From a virus (taxonomy: Duplodnaviria > Heunggongvirae > Uroviricota > Caudoviricetes): a DNA stretch of 64,000 bases. Location: positions 1 through 64,000 of the IMG/VR virus record IMGVR_UViG_2718218168_000001; one strand, 5' to 3'. Each line of letters begins with the position of its first letter. Position 1 is the stretch's first letter. Below the pieces are notes generated by a model. It did not search any database, was not told the origin of the DNA, and saw only the letters and a list, made by a program, of their open reading frames with translations. The position numbers were made by a program, and so were the translations under genes. Positions 20,899-41,245 of this stretch are shown piece by piece.

Positions 20899-21049
20899 AC
20901 TTCCCCAAATTATGGCTGTTTGCTCACCGAGCATCGCTCAAAGAAGCACGATTCTTCAAACATATAGATAGTGATAGTGCCACAACTTCTGGCTCTAACG
21001 GGCTGGGGAGGCGGCGCTTTGTTGCTAAATGATCTGGTTTAAAATGGAT

Positions 21050-22990
21050 ATGAAAAAAGAAACGATTTTTTCCGAAGTAGAAACGGCTAACAGCAAGCAA
21101 CTGGCTGTGTTGAAAGCTAATTTCCCACAGTGTTTTGATAAAAACGGAGCCTTCATTCAAGAAAAATTGCTTGAGATTATTAGAGCATCGGAGGTTGAAC
21201 TCTCTAAAGAATCATACAGTTTAAACTGGCTGGGTAAATCTTATGCCCGTTTGTTGGCCAATCTACCACCGAAAACGTTGTTGGCAGAAGATAAAACACA
21301 TAACCAACAAGAAGAGAACAAGAACAGTCAAAACCTGTTAATCAAAGGGGATAACCTCGAAGTATTGAAGCATATGGTTAATGCTTATGCTGAAAAGGTG
21401 AATATGATTTACATTGACCCACCATACAATACGGGTAAAGATGGATTCGTCTATAACGATGATCGCAAGTTTACACCAGAACAGCTTTCTGAACTGGCAG
21501 GTATCGAGCTTGATGAGGCTAACCGCATACTTGAATTTACCACCAAGGGTTCAAGCAGTCATAGTGCATGGCTGACATTCATTTATCCTCGTCTTTATAT
21601 TGCACGTGAACTTTTAAAAGAGGATGGAGTAATATTCATCTCCATAGACGATAACGAAGATAAACAGTTGGGATTATTATGCGACGAAGTATTTGGGCAA
21701 GGTAATTTTGTTGCAAAACTCCCTACAATCATGAATCTCAAAGGCAATCATGATAACTTTGGCTTTTCAGATACGCATGAATATATATATGTATACGCTA
21801 AAAACAAAGATGTTTGTAGTTTGGGGCAATTCGATATTGATGAAAGTGAAGTTGAAAAAGAGTGGGATGAAGATGAATATGGGCTATTTAAAAGAGCTGA
21901 TACATTAAAGCGTACTGGCCAAGATGCTTCTAGAAAATCAAGACCAAAAGGTTGGTTTCCGGTATTCATCAATTCAGAAAATAAGGTTTATGTAACAGAT
22001 GATGATAAACCTCTTAACGAAGATGACTATGTACTTTACCCAGTAAGCCCTACGGGTGAAGAGCTTTCATGGTCGTGGGGAAAGAAAAAAATAAATGATG
22101 AGTTTTATAATCTAATAGTAATAGATATAAAAGATGGTAAAAATATCTATAAAAAACAGCGGCCTGCTCTTGGAGAGCTACCAACTAAAAAGCCAAAATC
22201 AATTTGGTATAAACCTGAATATAGTACAAGCACGGCGACAACTGAGCTTAAAAATCTTTTAGGTGCAAAATTATTTGAAGGACCAAAACCTGTTCCTCTT
22301 ATAACCGATCTTGTAAAAATAGGAACAAAAAAGGATTCATTAGTTCTTGACTTTTTTGCTGGCTCTGGTACGACAGCAGAAGCTGTTGCATATTTAAATG
22401 AAAAAGATTCAGGCTGTAGGAATTTTATATGCATACAAAAAGATGAAGTTATAAATAAAACAAAGAATGCCTATTCTCTTGGCTATAGATCTATTTTTGA
22501 AATAACAAAAAAAAGGATACAGGAGGTATTTAAAAAAAGCACAACCACAAGTGATAATGCGGCTAAAATAGGTTTCAAAGTGATTCATACTATTGATGAC
22601 TTTAGAGCAAAAGTTGAGTCTGAACTTACGCTCACTAATCATACATTCTTTGATGATGCGGTATTAACGCCTGAACAGTATGATGCCCTATTGACTACAT
22701 GGTGTGTATATGATGGTAGCTTGTTAACAACACCTATTGAAGATGTTGATCTTAGTGGCTATACAGCACACTTTTGCAATGGCCGTCTGTATTTGATTGC
22801 ACCTAATTTTACTAGCGAAGCATTGAAAGCGTTGCTCCAAAAGCTGGATTCAGATGAAGATTTTGCCCCAAACAAAGTCGTGTTTTATGGTTGTAACTTT
22901 GAAAGTGCAAAACAAAGGGAGCTTAATGAGGCGCTAAAAAGTTATGCTAACAAAAAATCTATTGAGTTAGATTTAGTGGTAAGGAACTAA
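21050..22990 (+). CDS. mod: type III R-M methyltransferase subunit (EcoP1I Mod-like)
   Basis: DPPYNT motif IV and FAGSGTT AdoMet motif of N6-adenine MTases; 646 aa from the MKKETIF start (ORF opens at 21029); followed 3 nt later by res. Confidence 0.9.
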   Translation: MKKETIFSEVETANSKQLAVLKANFPQCFDKNGAFIQEKLLEIIRASEVELSKESYSLNWLGKSYARLLANLPPKTLLAEDKTHNQQEENKNSQNLLIKGDNLEVLKHMVNAYAEKVNMIYIDPPYNTGKDGFVYNDDRKFTPEQLSELAGIELDEANRILEFTTKGSSSHSAWLTFIYPRLYIARELLKEDGVIFISIDDNEDKQLGLLCDEVFGQGNFVAKLPTIMNLKGNHDNFGFSDTHEYIYVYAKNKDVCSLGQFDIDESEVEKEWDEDEYGLFKRADTLKRTGQDASRKSRPKGWFPVFINSENKVYVTDDDKPLNEDDYVLYPVSPTGEELSWSWGKKKINDEFYNLIVIDIKDGKNIYKKQRPALGELPTKKPKSIWYKPEYSTSTATTELKNLLGAKLFEGPKPVPLITDLVKIGTKKDSLVLDFFAGSGTTAEAVAYLNEKDSGCRNFICIQKDEVINKTKNAYSLGYRSIFEITKKRIQEVFKKSTTTSDNAAKIGFKVIHTIDDFRAKVESELTLTNHTFFDDAVLTPEQYDALLTTWCVYDGSLLTTPIEDVDLSGYTAHFCNGRLYLIAPNFTSEALKALLQKLDSDEDFAPNKVVFYGCNFESAKQRELNEALKSYANKKSIELDLVVRN

Positions 22991-22992
22991 TC

Positions 22993-25905
22993 ATGTCAAA
23001 AGGGTTCACATTCGAAAAGAACTTACCGCATCAGAAAGCAGGTGTCGATGCGGTGATGAACGTTTTTGTTTCCGCGACATCTCATCAGGAGGATAATGTT
23101 TCTATTCGCCTGTTAGTTAATCCAGAATTACGGCTTACTGAACAGCAATACTATAAAAATATAAAAAAAGTTCAGGAACTCAATGGTATTGAACATGTAA
23201 AAAATAATTACGATGCTGGAAGCAACGTAATCGATGTTTCTATGGAGACAGGTACAGGTAAAACGTATACCTACACTAAAACAATTTTTGATCTGAACAA
23301 ATCATTTGGCATTAATAAGTTTATCATTATTGTTCCTACTCTATCGATCAAAGCTGGAACAGTGAACTTTTTGAAAAGCGATGCGTTAAAAGAACACTTT
23401 AGAGATGATTATGAGCGTGAAATAAAGACTTACGTTGTTGAAAGTCAGAAAAATGCCGGTAAAAGCACAAAATCGTATATGCCTCAAGCTATACATGATT
23501 TTGTTGAAGCTAGTAATTTCAATAAGAAATATATACACGTTCTTGTTATTAACACGGGAATGATTCACTCTAAGAATTTAAATTCCACTTATGATGTTGG
23601 CTTGCTTGACAATCATTTTGATTCTCCCTTTTCAGCTCTTGGTGCGGTAAAACCATTCATTATCATTGATGAACCACATAAATTTCCTACTGGTAAAAAG
23701 ACATGGGAAAATATAGAGAAGTTTAATGCTCAATATATTATCCGCTACGGTGCGACCTTTAGTGAAGGCTATAAGAATTTAGTTTATCGACTTACAGCTG
23801 TGGATGCATTTAATGAAGACCTTGTTAAAGGTATTGATGCGTACATTGAGGATATTGTTGGTGATGGTGACGCCAACCTAAAGTTCATTAAATCTGATGG
23901 GGAAGAAGTTACATTTGAGCTAAATGAAAATAACAAGAAAACTTTATTTAAGTTAACAAAAGGTGAATCTCTATCTAAGACACATAGTGCTATTCACGAT
24001 TTAACTCTTGATGCCTTAGGCAAGAATACAGTAGTGTTGAGTAATGGTATTGAGCTAAAAATTGGTTGCTCAATAAACCCCTATTCTTACGATCAGACAC
24101 TTGCTGACAGCATGATGAGGAAAGCTATCAAAGAACACTTTAAGTTAGAAAAAGAGTTTCTGACACAAAGGCCACGCATAAAGCCTCTTACTCTTTTCTT
24201 TATTGATGATATTGAAGGTTATCGTGACGGTAATAATATTGCCGGAAGTTTGAAAGCTAAGTTCGAAGAATATGTTTTGGCAGAAGCTAATGAACTGTTA
24301 AAAATAGAAAAAGATGAGTTTTATAGTAACTATCTTGAAAAAACAGTTAAAGATATATCTTCCGTTCATGGCGGTTATTTTTCAAAAGATAACAGTGATA
24401 AGGATGATAAAATCGAGAAGGAAATCAACGAAATCCTTCATGACAAAGAGCTTTTGCTGTCTTTAGATAATCCACGTCGTTTCATTTTCTCCAAATGGAC
24501 GTTGCGTGAGGGATGGGATAATCCTAATGTCTTTCAGATCTGTAAGCTCCGTTCGAGCGGTAGTACCACATCCAAGCTTCAAGAGGTAGGGCGCGGTTTG
24601 CGTCTTCCTGTGAATGAATACATGTGTCGAGTGAAAGACCGCAATTTTACCCTTAAATATTATGTCGATTTTACAGAAAAGGATTTTGTTGACTCACTTG
24701 TTAAAGAGGTCAATGAGAGTTCTTTCAAAGAAAGGGTTCCAAGTAAGTTTACTCAAGAGCTTAAGGAACAAATCAGGGCTCAGTATCCTGAGCTTTCATC
24801 CAGAGCACTAATGAATGAACTTTTCAATGATGAAATCATTGATGAAAATGATAATTTCAAAGATTCAGATGCCTACAGCCGCTTAAAATCCAAATATCCA
24901 GCAGCATTCCCTATAGGAGTGAAACCAGGTAAAATCAAAAAAGCTACTGATGGAAAAAGACGCACTAAAATGCGTGTTGGTAAGTTCAGTGAGCTGAAAG
25001 AACTATGGGAATTAATCAATCAAAAAGCGGTGATTGAGTACAAAATAAACAGTGAAAATGAGTTTTTATCCATTTTCAAGTCATTCATGCTCGAAGAAAC
25101 AGAACGATTTACCAAATCAGGCGTTCATACTCGCATTGATAAAATTTACATCCACAATGATATGGCAATGTCGAAAAGCATTGTTAGTGATGACGATGAC
25201 TTTGCTAAGCTAAACACAATGAGTTATCGAGAGTTTCTCGATAACTTATCACAGACTATTTTTGTTAAACACGATACTTTACATAAAGTTTTTTGTGATA
25301 TAAAAGACACTATTAATATCACTGAATACCTGAATATTCAAACAATCAGAAAAATTAAATCTGGTTTTAGTAAGTATTTGTTGAACAATTCGTTTAACAA
25401 ATTCAGCCTCGGATATAATTTGATTTCGGGTTCAATTCATCCCACAAAGTTCACAAATGCTGATGGTAAGCCTCTAGACGAGGTATTATCAAGTGATCTT
25501 GGTGTATTACAGGATAATTCAAAAGCACCATTAGATACTTATCTTTTTGAAGAGGTTTTTTATGATTCAGAGCTTGAAAGGCGTAATATAACAGATAGAG
25601 ATATCCAGTCTGTTGTTGTTTTTTCAAAGATACCGAAGAATTCTATTAAGATCCCGGTAGCTGGTGGATACACTTACTCACCCGATTTTGCTTATGTTGT
25701 AAAAACAGCAGAAGGTGATTATCTTAACTTTATCATTGAAACAAAAAACGTAGATAGTAAGGATAGTTTACGGCTTGAAGAAAAAAAGAAAATTGAACAT
25801 GCCCAGGCGCTTTTCAATCAAATAAGTCAGTCTGTTAAAGTTGAATTCAAAACGCAGTTTGCTAATGATGATATTTATCAGTTAATCAAGAGCGCATTAC
25901 CATAA
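22993..25905 (+). CDS. res: type III R-M restriction subunit (EcoP1I Res-like)
   Basis: 970 aa; Walker A (TGTGKT) and DEPH helicase motifs; AT-rich codon usage distinct from the flanks. Confidence 0.9.
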   Translation: MSKGFTFEKNLPHQKAGVDAVMNVFVSATSHQEDNVSIRLLVNPELRLTEQQYYKNIKKVQELNGIEHVKNNYDAGSNVIDVSMETGTGKTYTYTKTIFDLNKSFGINKFIIIVPTLSIKAGTVNFLKSDALKEHFRDDYEREIKTYVVESQKNAGKSTKSYMPQAIHDFVEASNFNKKYIHVLVINTGMIHSKNLNSTYDVGLLDNHFDSPFSALGAVKPFIIIDEPHKFPTGKKTWENIEKFNAQYIIRYGATFSEGYKNLVYRLTAVDAFNEDLVKGIDAYIEDIVGDGDANLKFIKSDGEEVTFELNENNKKTLFKLTKGESLSKTHSAIHDLTLDALGKNTVVLSNGIELKIGCSINPYSYDQTLADSMMRKAIKEHFKLEKEFLTQRPRIKPLTLFFIDDIEGYRDGNNIAGSLKAKFEEYVLAEANELLKIEKDEFYSNYLEKTVKDISSVHGGYFSKDNSDKDDKIEKEINEILHDKELLLSLDNPRRFIFSKWTLREGWDNPNVFQICKLRSSGSTTSKLQEVGRGLRLPVNEYMCRVKDRNFTLKYYVDFTEKDFVDSLVKEVNESSFKERVPSKFTQELKEQIRAQYPELSSRALMNELFNDEIIDENDNFKDSDAYSRLKSKYPAAFPIGVKPGKIKKATDGKRRTKMRVGKFSELKELWELINQKAVIEYKINSENEFLSIFKSFMLEETERFTKSGVHTRIDKIYIHNDMAMSKSIVSDDDDFAKLNTMSYREFLDNLSQTIFVKHDTLHKVFCDIKDTINITEYLNIQTIRKIKSGFSKYLLNNSFNKFSLGYNLISGSIHPTKFTNADGKPLDEVLSSDLGVLQDNSKAPLDTYLFEEVFYDSELERRNITDRDIQSVVVFSKIPKNSIKIPVAGGYTYSPDFAYVVKTAEGDYLNFIIETKNVDSKDSLRLEEKKKIEHAQALFNQISQSVKVEFKTQFANDDIYQLIKSALP

Positions 25906-37899: not shown

Positions 37900-38043
37900 A
37901 AACACCTCGTGTACTCGTTATGTGTACACAATTATAAACTTCACAAGCATAAAGCACCAGCACTTTGCAGCTTAAATCACCGGACAATCGTCAAACTCCC
38001 CACTTCGGGCATCATTGATGAAATGATGTGGTCACACCAAACT

Positions 38044-38508
38044 TTAATCTTCAAGGTCTGCTTCTGATACCACTGTATAACCCAGAAATATTTTAATCTC
38101 ATCCCACAATCCCATGATCTTGCCTTCATACTCTGATGGTTCTCTTACAATTACTGAATCTGGGGGAGAGTGAGCCTCTAATTCAGTTATGATCTCATGG
38201 CAAAGATTATGTTTGTAATATTGTTTTAGTTTCTCTCGAATAGGTTTTGGCGCACTTTCAATAGTTTCTTTTGCGGCATTTAGTGAAAGAATTATATTAC
38301 TTGCGTCATTAACATCCCAGTCTGATCCAGCTTTTCCTGTTGCTATTTTATTTGCCCTATCAGCAAAGTTTATCAATGCTTCACTATAAAATTTTTCCTT
38401 ATCGAATAATCCAAGATTTTTACTTGTGCGCAAACTAATAAAAGCAGCTATTGCTGACCCAAATGCCGCAATAGCTGATGCCCAATCGGGATTGATATGA
38501 AGAAACAT
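38044..38508 (-). CDS. membrane-anchored protein (cargo)
   Basis: 154 aa; N-terminal transmembrane helix (WASAIAAFGSAIAAFISL); AT-rich codon usage; no P1 counterpart recalled. Confidence 0.5.
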   Translation of the reverse strand: MFLHINPDWASAIAAFGSAIAAFISLRTSKNLGLFDKEKFYSEALINFADRANKIATGKAGSDWDVNDASNIILSLNAAKETIESAPKPIREKLKQYYKHNLCHEIITELEAHSPPDSVIVREPSEYEGKIMGLWDEIKIFLGYTVVSEADLED

Positions 38509-38592
38509 GCTATCTCTACCTAATGCCAGATCTTTAACCTAGAAATATTGTATCAGTAGTTATGGCTTTGCCACCAGTAATGCGATTTTTTC

Positions 38593-39252
38593 CTAGTTGT
38601 CATTGCCCCCTACCAGCGGCAATAAAGCCCTGGCCATCTTATGAACCAATAGTGCATCAATAATGCCAAGCGTATGCCCCGGGTTAATGTTTAATGCCGC
38701 CTCAAGGTGACACCTTTCCAGGCCACTTTTCTCGGCTTGTTTATGATGGTCTGGCTTAATAACGTCGCCCAAAACACGGCTAATTCTTTCTCGTAATTGC
38801 TGGGTGCCAGCACACTTGATCGCTGTATCGTGGAGACGGTTAACCAGTTCGCGATAAACATGCGGCTTAATGCGGATACGTTCACCGGTGACGCCCTTTC
38901 CTGGCCCTGGCACCGAACTATCCGGAATATCCGGATAGTTGCCAGCCTCGTAAGCTACCCGCAGCCAGTGCATGAATGTTTCAGTAGACACACAACCACA
39001 GTCCACATCGATTTTTCCGCGTTGCTGTTCCAGCCACTGCTCAAAGTTCAATCTACACGTATTACTTTCATGTTGCTCTTTTTGTCTTAAGGCCAGCACC
39101 TGTTGGGCCAGTTCCAGAACGATACCGGGTGACGCTAACCTCTCAAATTCCAATAAATAGTTTGCGTCAGGATGACAAGTAGCCTCGCCTGCAAAAAATA
39201 CCAATTGCTGTAAGTATGCTGTCGTTAGAGTAGTCATTTCTTTTTGCGCCAT
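38593..39252 (-). CDS. hypothetical protein (cargo)
   Basis: 219 aa ORF, no motif recognised. Confidence 0.5.
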   Translation of the reverse strand: MAQKEMTTLTTAYLQQLVFFAGEATCHPDANYLLEFERLASPGIVLELAQQVLALRQKEQHESNTCRLNFEQWLEQQRGKIDVDCGCVSTETFMHWLRVAYEAGNYPDIPDSSVPGPGKGVTGERIRIKPHVYRELVNRLHDTAIKCAGTQQLRERISRVLGDVIKPDHHKQAEKSGLERCHLEAALNINPGHTLGIIDALLVHKMARALLPLVGGNDN

Positions 39253-39608
39253 TTCTTTTCACATTCCTTAGTCCATTTTTCAATGTTCATTTTGGCAATA
39301 TCAGTCATTCCATCACCTAAGAAATACTTTTTCCGGTACGTCTTGCACTTAAACCACACTACAACAGCCACCAGCCAGAAAATAAAAGGCCATACAGCAA
39401 TACCAACTCCAGCCGCGATAAAGCCCAATAGCCATAAATGAAGCTCTCCAACTTCTGTTTGCGGCAATATTCTTAAAGAATTAAACAGCAGACTGAAGGA
39501 ATGGTCGTATGCATTGGCGGTATAAGACATGCAATCCATATAATTAAAGTCATAGCCTGCGGCTGCCGCCCATAATGGGCGGTCAAGAAAATGTTTTAGT
39601 GTCATCAT
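39234..39608 (-). CDS. membrane protein (cargo)
   Basis: 124 aa with a central double transmembrane segment and Lys-rich C-terminus. Confidence 0.45.
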   Translation of the reverse strand: MMTLKHFLDRPLWAAAAGYDFNYMDCMSYTANAYDHSFSLLFNSLRILPQTEVGELHLWLLGFIAAGVGIAVWPFIFWLVAVVVWFKCKTYRKKYFLGDGMTDIAKMNIEKWTKECEKKWRKKK

Positions 39609-39614
39609 ATAAAT

Positions 39615-39908
39615 TTAAGGTTCAGACCAGTTATCTTCAATAGCAATGCTTAATCTTTGTAGCCATTCTGCTAATTTCAGCATTGCTTCTCTTTCGCTTA
39701 AACCACGAGGAAAATCATCAAGCGAAATTGTTGGCTTGAAGCCCCCGTAATTATCCATTTCAACAGTCAGATTTTGCTCCAGCACGGTATTCCTTACGCG
39801 GCTATTGTGCCGAAGCAAATATACTGAACGTGATTTATTGGTTTTATGGTCAAACTGATATTCGGTAAGTATCATCTGGCTTTTGCCATGACTATTACCT
39901 CTCCACAT
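39615..39908 (-). CDS. hypothetical protein (cargo)
   Basis: 97 aa from the internal ATG with a GAGG Shine-Dalgarno; the longer tool ORF (to 39995) overlaps the upstream small ORF. Confidence 0.4.
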   Translation of the reverse strand: MWRGNSHGKSQMILTEYQFDHKTNKSRSVYLLRHNSRVRNTVLEQNLTVEMDNYGGFKPTISLDDFPRGLSEREAMLKLAEWLQRLSIAIEDNWSEP

Positions 39909-39915
39909 ACTTACC

Positions 39916-40038
39916 TCACTTAATAAAACAACTCCATACGTAGTTGATGATTTTTCCCCACGTAATATAAATATGCACTCCAGCAGAAAAACCAAAACCT
40001 ACAATTACTGAAAAAATCAAAACATTTACTTTTGACAT
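39916..40038 (-). CDS. tiny transmembrane peptide
   Basis: 40 codons (MSKVNVLIFSVIVGFGFSAGVHIYITWG...), below the ORF-track cutoff; ends 8 nt before the next start. Confidence 0.3.
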   Translation of the reverse strand: MSKVNVLIFSVIVGFGFSAGVHIYITWGKIINYVWSCFIK

Positions 40039-40086
40039 TATAAAATTTCTCTCGTTGCCGTAGGTGATAGCACCATAATTTCTAAT

Positions 40087-40402: not shown

Positions 40403-41245
40403 TCATTGACCTGCCTCCTGGGGAGGTTCTGGTAGCAGCATCCAGAACAAGGCGTTCCCTAACCACGATAAAGTGCCGTCGCTCAACTCCACGTATTCCC
40501 CTTGCACCTGTCCTGCCATATACTCACCGTGCTTTGAATAAATTAAAATCCAATCATCTTGAGCGGGCATTCGCTCACTACAGCTTATCCAACCATCCGG
40601 AGTTACCGGATAGTTGCCATTCACAAGGTCAGCTCGAACATATAGCGTGTCATCATGGTGCTGATTGTGGCTGCACCACGTTAATTCGCTTAACTCGCCA
40701 TCTTCTGGCCATACTCCAGCTGTTTGCAGCCAGATATGGGCTGGCGCATCCTGGCAAGGTGTATTAACTGGAAACTTGTAAGTTTGGCTTACAGGTTGGC
40801 TACCCTGAAGCATGGCAGCGTGGCAGGCATACTCAACGCCCTTAACTGCATCTGCGCAGTAGTTATAGCGATTGCATTCCACTAATTTCCGTTTGAGTTT
40901 TTCAATTGCCTGCGCGACATCAGCCTGTATTACAGGAACTGGCGGAGTGGTATATAGTTTTCGGCATTTGTTTATCCAACCGGCATGGTCAGGCGTGTCT
41001 GTAAAGCGCAAATCGTTTTCGTAGCCCTCACGACTACGTTCTTTCCATTCCGTCCACGGAACACCGCTATTCCAAGTGGGGCGAGTGCAGGACTGATACA
41101 GAACAGGTTCAGCTTCCAGCGCTGCCAGAGCAATCCGTGCCAGTTCTTCCGCTTCTTCTGCTGGCAGTACAACGTTGCTACCAGGTCCGTATGTTTCGCG
41201 CCACTGCTTGATTGTCAGCAGTCGCTCTTTGGTAATAGTGGTCAT
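40403..41245 (-). CDS. DUF551-domain protein
   Basis: 280 aa; C-terminal W..SERMP...W motif typical of DUF551, common in lambdoid accessory regions. Confidence 0.55.
   Translation of the reverse strand: MTTITKERLLTIKQWRETYGPGSNVVLPAEEAEELARIALAALEAEPVLYQSCTRPTWNSGVPWTEWKERSREGYENDLRFTDTPDHAGWINKCRKLYTTPPVPVIQADVAQAIEKLKRKLVECNRYNYCADAVKGVEYACHAAMLQGSQPVSQTYKFPVNTPCQDAPAHIWLQTAGVWPEDGELSELTWCSHNQHHDDTLYVRADLVNGNYPVTPDGWISCSERMPAQDDWILIYSKHGEYMAGQVQGEYVELSDGTLSWLGNALFWMLLPEPPQEAGQ

Follow-up and report, generated by a model that had tools for sequence, protein, structure and literature searches.

The question raised by this locus is whether a short, AT-rich block of small genes next to an addiction module works as one functional unit, or whether it is assembled from unrelated parts. 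The window, meaning the whole 64-kb stretch of DNA that was analysed, is an E. coli P1-like phage-plasmid, and E. coli P1-like plasmids match it at 100%. The block itself (38044-40040) lies on the minus strand, directly upstream of phd/doc. A preliminary description had read it as a single subcluster of small membrane proteins in compositionally foreign cargo, and had suggested abortive infection, superinfection exclusion or a toxin/immunity pair as its function.

The flanks are as in P1, with phd/doc, pdcA/B, lpa and pap around the region. The interval is the phd-proximal end of the published hypervariable "variable region 8" (pmgT to humD) of P1-like phage-plasmids. In P1, every tested gene from pmgT to humD is non-essential (PMC10695390). 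The interval is largely ordinary, consisting of four small early-operon genes that are common among relatives and one rare, foreign single-gene insert. The explanation favoured here, which taken as a whole is likely to be correct, is that these are two evolutionarily and regulatorily separate parts that do not make up a single functional subcluster.

Base composition gives a first indication. The distal 2 kb is AT-richer than the backbone, as first described: its GC content is 41.1%, against ∼48.9% for the backbone and 47.7% for the window, and 0.36% of 2-kb windows are equally low (21-26 kb island left out). Published work ties the variable regions to low G+C. By gene, GC content is 36% for w154, 48% for w219, 40.5% for w124, 40% for w97 and 30% for w40. 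The AT-richness is patchy, because w219, with 660 of the 1,997 bases, has the GC content of the backbone. The features discussed below are as follows.

37975-38043, minus strand: 3′ remnant of humD, lying between the stop codon of w154 and the promoter of phd, placed by alignment with humD of P1 and p1303_95.
38044-38508, minus strand: w154, 154 aa, the sole gene of the AT-rich cassette; phrog_1779 (E = 1.5e-62).
38044-38615, minus strand: inserted cassette of ∼570 bp (w154 and its upstream gap), delimited by a three-way alignment with p1303_95 and P1.
38547-38574, minus strand: sigma-70-like promoter match, GTGGCA-16 nt-TACAAT with an upstream TG (extended -10), from a consensus scan, in the 84-nt gap ahead of w154.
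38593-39252, minus strand: w219, a mosaic PmgU-family protein; phrog_21459 (E = 1.5e-76).
39234-39608, minus strand: w124, a membrane protein; phrog_2638 (E = 3e-63).
39615-39908, minus strand: w97, a soluble protein of 97 aa; phrog_1258 (E = 1e-49).
39916-40038, minus strand: w40, a 40-aa single-pass hydrophobic peptide; phrog_5525 (E = 8e-21).
43282-43480, minus strand: operon control region, with the C1 operator (43451-43467, the counterpart of P1 OpmgT/Op88), the PpmgT promoters and the leader; outside the interval, governing w40 to w219.

The four ORFs initially listed (154, 124, 97 and 40 aa) are real minus-strand genes, each with a PHROG family match (E = 8e-21 to 3e-63). That list was incomplete, since the 219-aa ORF, a third of the interval, had been overlooked. 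Tight or overlapping junctions are present in one part of the block: w40 and w97 are 7 nt apart, w97 and w124 are 6 nt apart, and 19 nt are shared by w124 and w219 (an ATGA only, if Met6 is the true start of w219). They do not extend to w154, which has gaps of 84 nt and 138 nt on its two sides.

The genes from w40 to w219 are the tail of a long co-directional PpmgT operon with short gaps or overlaps throughout. The C1 operator at its head has 2 mismatches to the consensus, and a search of the 64-kb window for such operators returned 15 matches against 0.42 expected. The leader, including the operator, is 99% identical to the pap-pmgT intergenic region of P1, where the operator and promoters are annotated (NC_005856). 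A terminator scan from 43.3 to 38.6 kb returned one weak minus-strand site, with a 5-bp stem inside w219. Op88 and the promoters immediately downstream of pap, the co-directional genes and the lack of a convincing terminator point, at the sequence level, to a PpmgT early operon. Just upstream, the same operon also codes for one protein with an Ead/Ea22 domain and for a DUF551 protein. With gaps of 6-7 nt and an overlap, the genes from w40 to w219 are probably coupled in translation.

With this organization, C1 should hold w40 to w219 off in the plasmid-prophage state, and upon induction or infection these genes would be transcribed early as one message from PpmgT. Since genes under C1 would be silent in the lysogen and expressed early in the lytic cycle, a prophage-expressed abortive-infection or exclusion function, as suggested earlier, does not fit w40, w97 and w124, for which no PADLOC match was found either.

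The relatives of these four genes place them in a familiar setting. Residues 114-219 of w219 share 88% identity with P1 PmgU over 106 residues, and residues 59-219 share 89% identity (161 residues) with the C-terminal part of a 310-aa SJ46 protein; an identification as PmgT was rejected. The w97 family comprises well-conserved enterobacterial prophage early genes, with 128 homologue clusters in Klebsiella, Salmonella, Citrobacter and Erwinia, located in lambdoid PL-type and nin-type early regions. The 97-aa start is supported because the family alignment begins MWRG. As had been proposed, w97 appears to be soluble: its AlphaFold2 model (pLDDT 85) has four antiparallel strands, forming a sheet, and one C-terminal helix. 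For w40, copies at 85-88% identity are annotated in SJ46 and vB_EcoM-813R1, and 40-aa homologues at 44-47% identity adjoin ea22 in lambdoid phages. A relationship to UpfM was rejected (27% identity in a forced alignment).

The membrane protein w124 has an acidic N-terminal region of ∼55 residues, an apolar stretch of ∼31 residues and a strongly basic C-terminal tail. The stretch is continuous with a central conserved WP (WPFIFW), and three Cys residues are invariant in the family alignment. Both w124 and w40 have clearly apolar segments. The earlier double-helix assignment for w124 is uncertain, ∼31 residues being too short for two full membrane helices. Only 16 homologue clusters were found, mostly from P1-like elements. 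Homologues at 51-57% identity lie in phage early operons, between an RNase_T exonuclease gene plus a 79-aa gene and Dam; the gene order of these operons can be read as resembling that of N15-type linear phage-plasmids. PmgV, which like w124 is ∼120 aa long, was rejected as a homologue, since the two do not align.

All three genes w40, w97 and w124 are present in RCS47, SJ46 and p1303_95. The segment from w40 to w124 was found in 265-308 of 5,426 complete E. coli genomes (∼5%), and 313 of the 317 places are on plasmids. All three belong to the ordinary, widely conserved gene stock of P1-like phage-plasmids, an outcome that the preliminary description had itself named as contrary to its functional suggestion, and for them the label of compositionally foreign cargo does not hold. 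They and w219 appear to have been drawn from the lambdoid ea/exo-xis and nin pool of small early genes. By analogy with that pool, all four most likely act as dispensable early host modifiers, two of them predicted to sit at the inner membrane.

The remaining gene, w154, has a different history. Alignment with p1303_95 and P1 shows that its cassette stands in for a ∼1.45-kb segment of common P1-like plasmids, which carries a 94-aa gene, an opposite-strand 116-aa gene, hot and most of humD; hot, the lxr-side gene and most of humD are thereby displaced. With its clear breakpoints and AT-rich content, the cassette is the one part of the block to which the description as foreign cargo applies. The GC3 of w154, 0.24, is the lowest among the 39 ORFs of at least 150 aa, with the backbone ∼4 SD higher at 0.49 ± 0.06. 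The cassette occurs in 9 of the 5,426 complete E. coli genomes, with identical junctions and always on plasmids, and an E. marmotae plasmid has the same junctions at 99% identity. It was probably acquired once and then passed on by recombination to a few P1-like plasmids. When the w154 copies of E. coli and E. marmotae are compared, 4 of 5 coding differences change an amino acid, too few for a dN/dS-type test.

The control of w154 may also be separate from that of the operon. The promoter-like sequence in the 84-nt gap is identical in the E. marmotae copy, and w154 probably has its own promoter, in which case its product may be made in the lysogen. The promoter match counts as weak evidence, because promoter-like sites in the region are not above shuffled expectation. 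The terminator scan found none after w219 or after w154, so transcription of w154 may simply continue from the C1-controlled operon, in which case it would not differ in behaviour from the genes there. A LexA-box search, bearing on possible inheritance of the SOS control of humD, returned no box near w154, and matches in the window were at chance level.

In the w154 protein, an apolar N-terminal segment rich in Ala, Gly and Ser (residues 9-26) precedes an all-helical domain of ∼125 residues, and the C-terminal motif, EADLED, is acidic. The AlphaFold2 model is all helical with a pLDDT of 74 (∼42 over residues 1-30). As for the proposed N-terminal anchor, the segment is conserved across the family and its hydrophobicity is marginal, with a Kyte-Doolittle maximum of 1.49 and an insertion-energy sum of +1.3 (family range -0.9 to +3.0). 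The product may be a helical protein tethered to the inner membrane and facing the cytoplasm. A word-index protein search retrieved one w154 cluster only; an exhaustive HMMER search recovered the family, which, clustered at 50% identity, comprises 21 representatives in a set of 1.84 billion proteins. Each of these relatives stands alone, next to differing genes of prophage early or nin regions. One carries a fused extra multi-helix membrane domain. The homologue of phage PhiR26_1 is located in the ren-to-nin gap, at a distance of three annotated genes from PD-lambda-1; other contexts contain methyltransferases, DUF551 and NinE, which are not defence genes.

Database comparisons gave no clue to biochemical activity. 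For w154, w219, w124, w97 and w40, no family, fold or motif pointing to an activity was found, and Pfam, NCBIfam and PADLOC scans of the ORFs in the interval gave nothing above noise. PADLOC-DB v2 had no match at E ≤ 1 for the seven proteins from w154 through w280. Profile searches of the PDB sequence set with the w154, w97 and w124 families gave nothing significant. None of the interval's proteins has a match in PDB or BFVD, and w154 has no structural likeness to solved or viral proteins.

The w154 protein is the sole plausible candidate in the interval for a lysogen-expressed, membrane-tethered moron, and a membrane-acting exclusion role for it is possible. In its strongest form, this proposal makes w154 a superinfection-exclusion or abortive-infection protein that the prophage expresses from the gene's own promoter and that acts at the inner membrane to block DNA entry or to abort other phages. 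The foreign, AT-rich single-gene cassette with its promoter-like site is consistent with such a role, as are the conserved apolar N-terminal segment, the homologue fused to a multi-helix membrane domain, the rare and patchy occurrence of the family, the accessory prophage positions of its relatives and the PhiR26_1 copy near PD-lambda-1. The 4 of 5 amino-acid-changing differences from E. marmotae would point the same way, in a sample too small for a test. Against it, neither solved nor viral structures resemble the protein, the anchor is marginally hydrophobic, and the neighbourhood evidence is thin, given the methyltransferase, DUF551 and NinE contexts. Among 22 family members, PADLOC-DB v2 gave six scattered single matches (E = 0.002-0.008), each to a different model, with none for w154 itself and nothing consistent among its 21 relatives. 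The proposal is judged unlikely for w154.

A broader version is more doubtful still. It holds that the w154 family as a whole is a new, rare, single-gene, inner-membrane-tethered anti-phage protein of the exclusion type, residing in accessory slots of enterobacterial temperate phages, acquired by a P1-like lineage at the cost of hot (replication) and humD (SOS), and expressed in the lysogen from its own promoter. If true, w154 would add a single-gene exclusion or defence system, and it would be a case of phage-plasmids swapping DNA-repair accessories for immunity.

A toxin/immunity pair, with w40 and/or w124 as membrane toxins and w97 (or w219) as immunity protein or antitoxin in an addiction or abortive-infection module beside phd/doc, is very improbable. 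Small hydrophobic proteins do closely abut a small soluble protein here, and truncated or internally frame-shifted w124 variants, present on long P1-like contigs, could reflect counter-selection. However, outside P1-like elements w40, w97 and w124 do not travel together, each homologue lying beside unrelated genes, and this leaves the pair unsupported. Around w97 homologues in prophages of Klebsiella and Salmonella, the genes are unrelated ones; the w124 homologues are flanked by Dam and by the 79-aa protein, which does not significantly resemble w97; and after the lambdoid w40 homologue comes a 100-aa protein that has no relationship to w97. Homologues of the three genes thus lack the co-conservation of adjacent genes in unrelated contexts that characterizes type II pairs. 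As for type I systems, w40 is hydrophobic and 40 aa long but sits in mid-operon, 7 nt ahead of w97. Position within an operon under a repressor-controlled early promoter is also unlike the autonomous, autoregulated layout of toxin-antitoxin loci. PADLOC, Pfam and NCBIfam gave no toxin or antitoxin match, and an Rfam search of 36-44 kb at E ≤ 1 found no family, antisense or sRNA, in the region, a sub-threshold GcvB match lying elsewhere.

The charged C-terminal tail and apolar core of w124, and the single-pass character of w40, would also suit small, membrane-spanning holin-like or lysis-timing proteins. This has scarcely any likelihood: no endolysin or spanin gene adjoins them (the neighbours are Ea22-like, DUF551, PmgU-like and phd), the operon is early and C1-controlled rather than late and Lpa-dependent, the homologues have replication, recombination and methylase genes around them rather than lysis genes, and Pfam and NCBIfam hold no matching holin family. 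That the small ORFs, w40 above all, are chance open frames in AT-rich DNA is the least credible reading, for although w40 is unannotated in RefSeq records of identical plasmids, is overlapped by a spurious TTG-started extension of w97 and differs among P1-like copies at few positions, most of them amino-acid-changing (too few for dN/dS-type counting), its exact length and hydrophobic pattern are kept at 43% identity in a lambdoid phage, where it is annotated, its PHROG match is strong (E = 8e-21), its end is 7 nt from w97 and closely followed by the GAGG ribosome-binding site of that gene, and the remaining ORFs have strong family support.

The favoured account, a C1-repressed operon tail joined to an unrelated w154 cassette, leaves no place for the single subcluster originally proposed. 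Its main yield is a view of how a known hypervariable region of P1-like phage-plasmids is assembled in the present element: an early operon apparently stocked with small accessory genes from the lambdoid pool, and a clean single-gene replacement that took out hot and humD. In practical terms the gain is modest, namely exact breakpoints and five uncharacterised conserved proteins, two or three of which are predicted to be membrane-associated.

Small membrane proteins that exclude superinfecting phages include T4 Imm and Sp, P22 SieA and SieB, lactococcal Sie2009 and HK97 gp15. The w154 protein is of the same size class and, like them, has a soluble domain after an apolar N-terminal segment. It differs in having no detectable sequence or fold similarity to them and in its only marginally hydrophobic anchor, and w40 and w124 differ in being under a lytic-phase promoter. 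Morons of temperate phages are autonomous promoter-gene-terminator units between conserved genes, with deviant base composition. Insertion and deviant composition are both found in the w154 cassette (breakpoints against P1 and p1303_95; GC3 of 0.24), which, like a moron, is a single inserted gene with a promoter-like site. In contrast to morons, it has no detected terminator, and resident genes have been replaced rather than merely added to.

The interval also has a parallel in the lambdoid exo-xis, ea and nin accessory genes (Ea22, DUF551, orf60a/61/63/73). Published work describes exo-xis genes as expressed very early and as tuning the lysis-lysogeny decision. Here as there, the genes are small, mosaic, non-essential and part of a repressor-controlled early operon; Ead/Ea22-domain and DUF551 proteins share the present operon, and homologues of w40, w97 and w154 occur in such lambdoid prophage regions. 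The difference is the P1 backbone under C1, instead of CI/N control. Because w40, w97, w124 and w154 have no homology to characterised exo-xis proteins, no function is transferable from them.

Compared with variable region 8 of P1 itself, the locus occupies the same position, between pap (with the C1 operator Op88) and phd/doc, and its content is likewise swapped between relatives, with a PmgU-family gene kept. It differs in missing pmgT, pmgV, upfM/N/O, hot, lxr and humD. In place of these P1 genes it carries small lambdoid-type genes and the w154 cassette, a variant that is rare among E. coli genomes (9 of 5,426).

The interval 38044-40040 lies on the minus strand just upstream of phd/doc. 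Together with its flanks it matches several E. coli plasmids of 93-99 kb at 100% identity, among them AP026456.1 and NZ_CP142921.1, and phages P1, RCS47 and SJ46 are closely related. The minus-strand gene order (pap, small-gene block, phd, doc, pdcA, pdcB, lpa) is that of P1, except that the pap-to-phd segment has been exchanged for other content. Variable regions of P1-like elements are tied to low G+C (PMC9603915), and the P1 genes tested in the corresponding segment were all dispensable (PMC10695390). The locus is an already published variable region. Its five genes, named here by product length in amino acids (w40, w97, w124, w219 and w154), already have public entries, both in PHROGs and as hypothetical proteins, and nothing points to a new kind of system. 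What the analysis adds is the exact boundaries of the w154 cassette, the loss of hot and humD, the rarity of the w154 family and a negative co-occurrence test.

The preliminary description of the interval as AT-rich holds: its GC content is 41.1%, the window as a whole has 47.7%, and outside the 21-26 kb island a value this low is reached by only 0.36% of 2-kb windows. Because GC varies by gene, this AT-richness is patchy. All four ORFs listed at that stage were found on the minus strand, each matching a PHROG family of unknown function (E = 8e-21 to 3e-63), but w219, which has backbone-like composition and occupies one third of the interval, had been overlooked. The tight or overlapping junctions are present along w40-w97-w124-w219 (gaps of 7 and 6 nt, followed by an overlap of 19 nt, or of ATGA if w219 starts at Met6) but not around w154, which is set apart by gaps of 84 and 138 nt.

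Features of the interval and its downstream edge
39916-40038, minus strand: w40, GC 30%
39615-39908, minus strand: w97, GC 40%
39234-39608, minus strand: w124, GC 40.5%
38593-39252, minus strand: w219, GC 48%, GC3 0.48
38044-38508, minus strand: w154, GC 36%
37975-38043, minus strand: humD 3' remnant, non-functional, ~70 bases situated between the phd promoter and w154, with one inserted nt compared with P1

The lowest-GC island of the window is located elsewhere (21029-25905, plus strand, GC 0.33-0.38). It is the res/mod variable region of P1, and its two large ORFs (653 and 970 aa) encode type III restriction-modification domains: Mod (N6_N4_Mtase, EcoP15I C-terminal domain) and Res (ResIII, endonuclease).

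Alignment with p1303_95 and P1 defined the boundaries of the w154 cassette (38044-38615). Homology breaks near 38620, within about six codons of the w219 end, and restarts, in the final 70 bases of humD, directly past the stop codon of w154. About 570 bp with w154 as sole gene thus stand in place of ~1.45 kb; common relatives have there a 94-aa gene, a 116-aa gene on the opposite strand, hot and humD. With hot replaced and humD reduced to its 3' remnant, the element lacks both HumD and Hot. The GC3 of w154 (0.24) is lower than that of any other of the window's 39 ORFs with 150 aa or more (backbone 0.49 +/- 0.06). Among 5,426 complete E. coli genomes, 9 have the cassette, each time on a P1-like plasmid; plasmids of E. 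albertii and E. marmotae carry it too. In E. marmotae the junctions are the same and identity is 99%, so the sequences point to a single acquisition followed by spread through recombination.

An exhaustive HMMER search of 1.84 billion proteins returned 21 representatives of the w154 family. They share an uncharged N-terminal segment rich in Ala/Gly/Ser, a helical domain, an invariant Trp and, at the C-terminus, an acidic D-L-x-D motif, and are encoded by stand-alone genes with varied neighbours (Rha/YbcN, Dam-type methylases, DUF551/NinE) in prophage early or nin regions. As to the N-terminal anchor proposed for w154, the apolar segment is kept across the family, but its predicted membrane insertion is marginal (Kyte-Doolittle 1.49; insertion-energy sum +1.3, family range -0.9 to +3.0). 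Positive residues following the segment suggest that the helical domain faces the cytoplasm.

The abortive-infection or superinfection-exclusion role first suggested for these genes would require expression in the lysogen. w154 alone fits such a role, given its separate origin and a possible promoter. The gap upstream contains a promoter-like site with an extended -10 element, which is weak evidence since such matches are not enriched in the region. The positive evidence consists of the protein's architecture and a single neighbourhood lying three annotated genes from PD-lambda-1. None of the five proteins matched Pfam, NCBIfam or PADLOC, the 22 w154-family members scanned gave only scattered single hits (in PADLOC six, at E = 0.002-0.008, each to a different model), and profile searches of PDB sequences with the w154, w97 and w124 families gave no match. 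The one lead, that w154 may be an undescribed exclusion-type protein, is judged improbable.

For w40, w97, w124 and w219 the opposite expression is predicted. They form the tail of the PpmgT operon, an early operon that starts after pap and is predicted to be C1-repressed. Over the 220 bases that follow pap, identity to P1 is 99%; this stretch holds the C1 operator (43451-43467) and the annotated PpmgT promoters. As a control region it predicts no lysogen expression and argues against the role for w40, w97 and w124. All genes from the leader to w219, among them those for an Ead/Ea22-domain and a DUF551 protein, are co-directional and either overlap or are separated by short gaps, and the only minus-strand terminator-like site is a weak 5-bp stem within w219.

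The PpmgT leader also contains a 28-codon hydrophobic ORF (MNTAFKIIMAAIYFWLFSITFGGIVAHG; 43282-43368, minus strand). Situated between the first long gene and the C1 operator, it has an AGGAG ribosome-binding site. P1 has the identical ORF, with no CDS annotated, and a small 'membrane protein' is annotated at the counterpart position in SJ46. A perfect 10-bp GC-rich hairpin (ACATGCCGCG...CGCGGCATGT type; 43396-43418) is conserved with P1; as a T-run follows the stem on the plus strand only, it looks like a terminator for opposite-direction transcription, or else a regulatory leader structure. The DUF551 ORF (280 aa; 40403-41245, minus strand) is annotated in RefSeq as only 136 aa in the window's twin plasmid. 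Its N-terminal ~50 residues (MTTITKERLLTIKQWRETYGPGSNVVLPAEEAEELARIALAA...) also begin an otherwise unrelated 206-aa Klebsiella prophage protein (L012 5291-5911), directly after a w97 homologue, indicating domain-level shuffling among early genes.

The view of w40, w97 and w124 as foreign cargo is not sustained. Of 5,426 complete E. coli genomes, 265-308 carry the segment from w40 to w124 (plasmids account for 313 of its 317 places), and RCS47, SJ46 and p1303_95 have it in the same order. Together with w219, these are therefore ordinary members of the P1-like gene pool. w40 is a single apolar helix, with copies annotated in SJ46 and vB_EcoM-813R1 (85-88% identical) and 40-aa lambdoid homologues (44-47%) adjoining ea22. 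The w97 family is well conserved (128 clusters across Klebsiella, Salmonella, Citrobacter and Erwinia), in early regions of lambdoid-type prophages; its model (pLDDT 85) has four antiparallel strands and a C-terminal helix, and fold comparison gave no informative match. The w124 family is narrow (16 clusters). Its most distant homologues (51-57% identity) lie between exonuclease and Dam in early operons of phages whose gene order (1,323-aa replication protein, repressor, Q) we read as N15-type. The protein combines an acidic N-terminal domain, one ~31-residue apolar stretch with a conserved WPFIFW, which may form a single membrane crossing or a hairpin, and a very basic tail. w124 is evidently often damaged: several P1-like contigs of 27-98 kb encode truncated forms of 78-99 aa (P0007, P0013-P0016), and in P0007 an internal segment spanning the membrane stretch can be read as the product of two compensating frameshifts.

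w219 is a mosaic member of the PmgU family: residues 114-219 are 88% identical to P1 PmgU, and residues 59-219 share 89% identity with the C-terminal portion of an SJ46 protein of 310 aa. The annotated 111-aa P1 PmgU (L002 5223-5558) matches only the C-terminal part of the longer proteins of its relatives (219 aa, window 38593-39252; 310 aa, SJ46, L017 4787-5719). The PmgU-type proteins compared share the start MAQKEMT and differ in their middles; in P1, pmgU is annotated as overlapping pmgT in another frame, and what is annotated may be one modular gene in truncated or frame-shifted form.

A toxin/immunity or toxin-antitoxin pair would be expected to travel together, and this reading fails because outside P1-like elements the w97, w124 and w40 homologues have unrelated neighbours: w97 homologues precede unrelated proteins, w124 homologues follow a 79-aa protein without significant similarity to w97, and the protein after the lambdoid w40 homologue is unrelated to w97. 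An Rfam search of the region found no antisense-partner RNA family.

Most likely, PpmgT would drive a long early transcript upon loss of C1 repression. Its last four cistrons, probably translationally coupled, would yield membrane products of 40 aa (a peptide) and 124 aa, a small soluble protein and a member of the PmgU family, two of the four being predicted to act at the inner membrane. w154 would supply the lysogen with a membrane-tethered cytoplasmic helical protein, provided that its promoter is real. The w40-w219 block is drawn from the lambdoid exo-xis/ea gene pool and, by analogy with those genes, may consist of early genes that are dispensable and modify host physiology or the lysis-lysogeny balance. 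w154 instead resembles a moron, as a separate, independently acquired gene with a putative promoter of its own.
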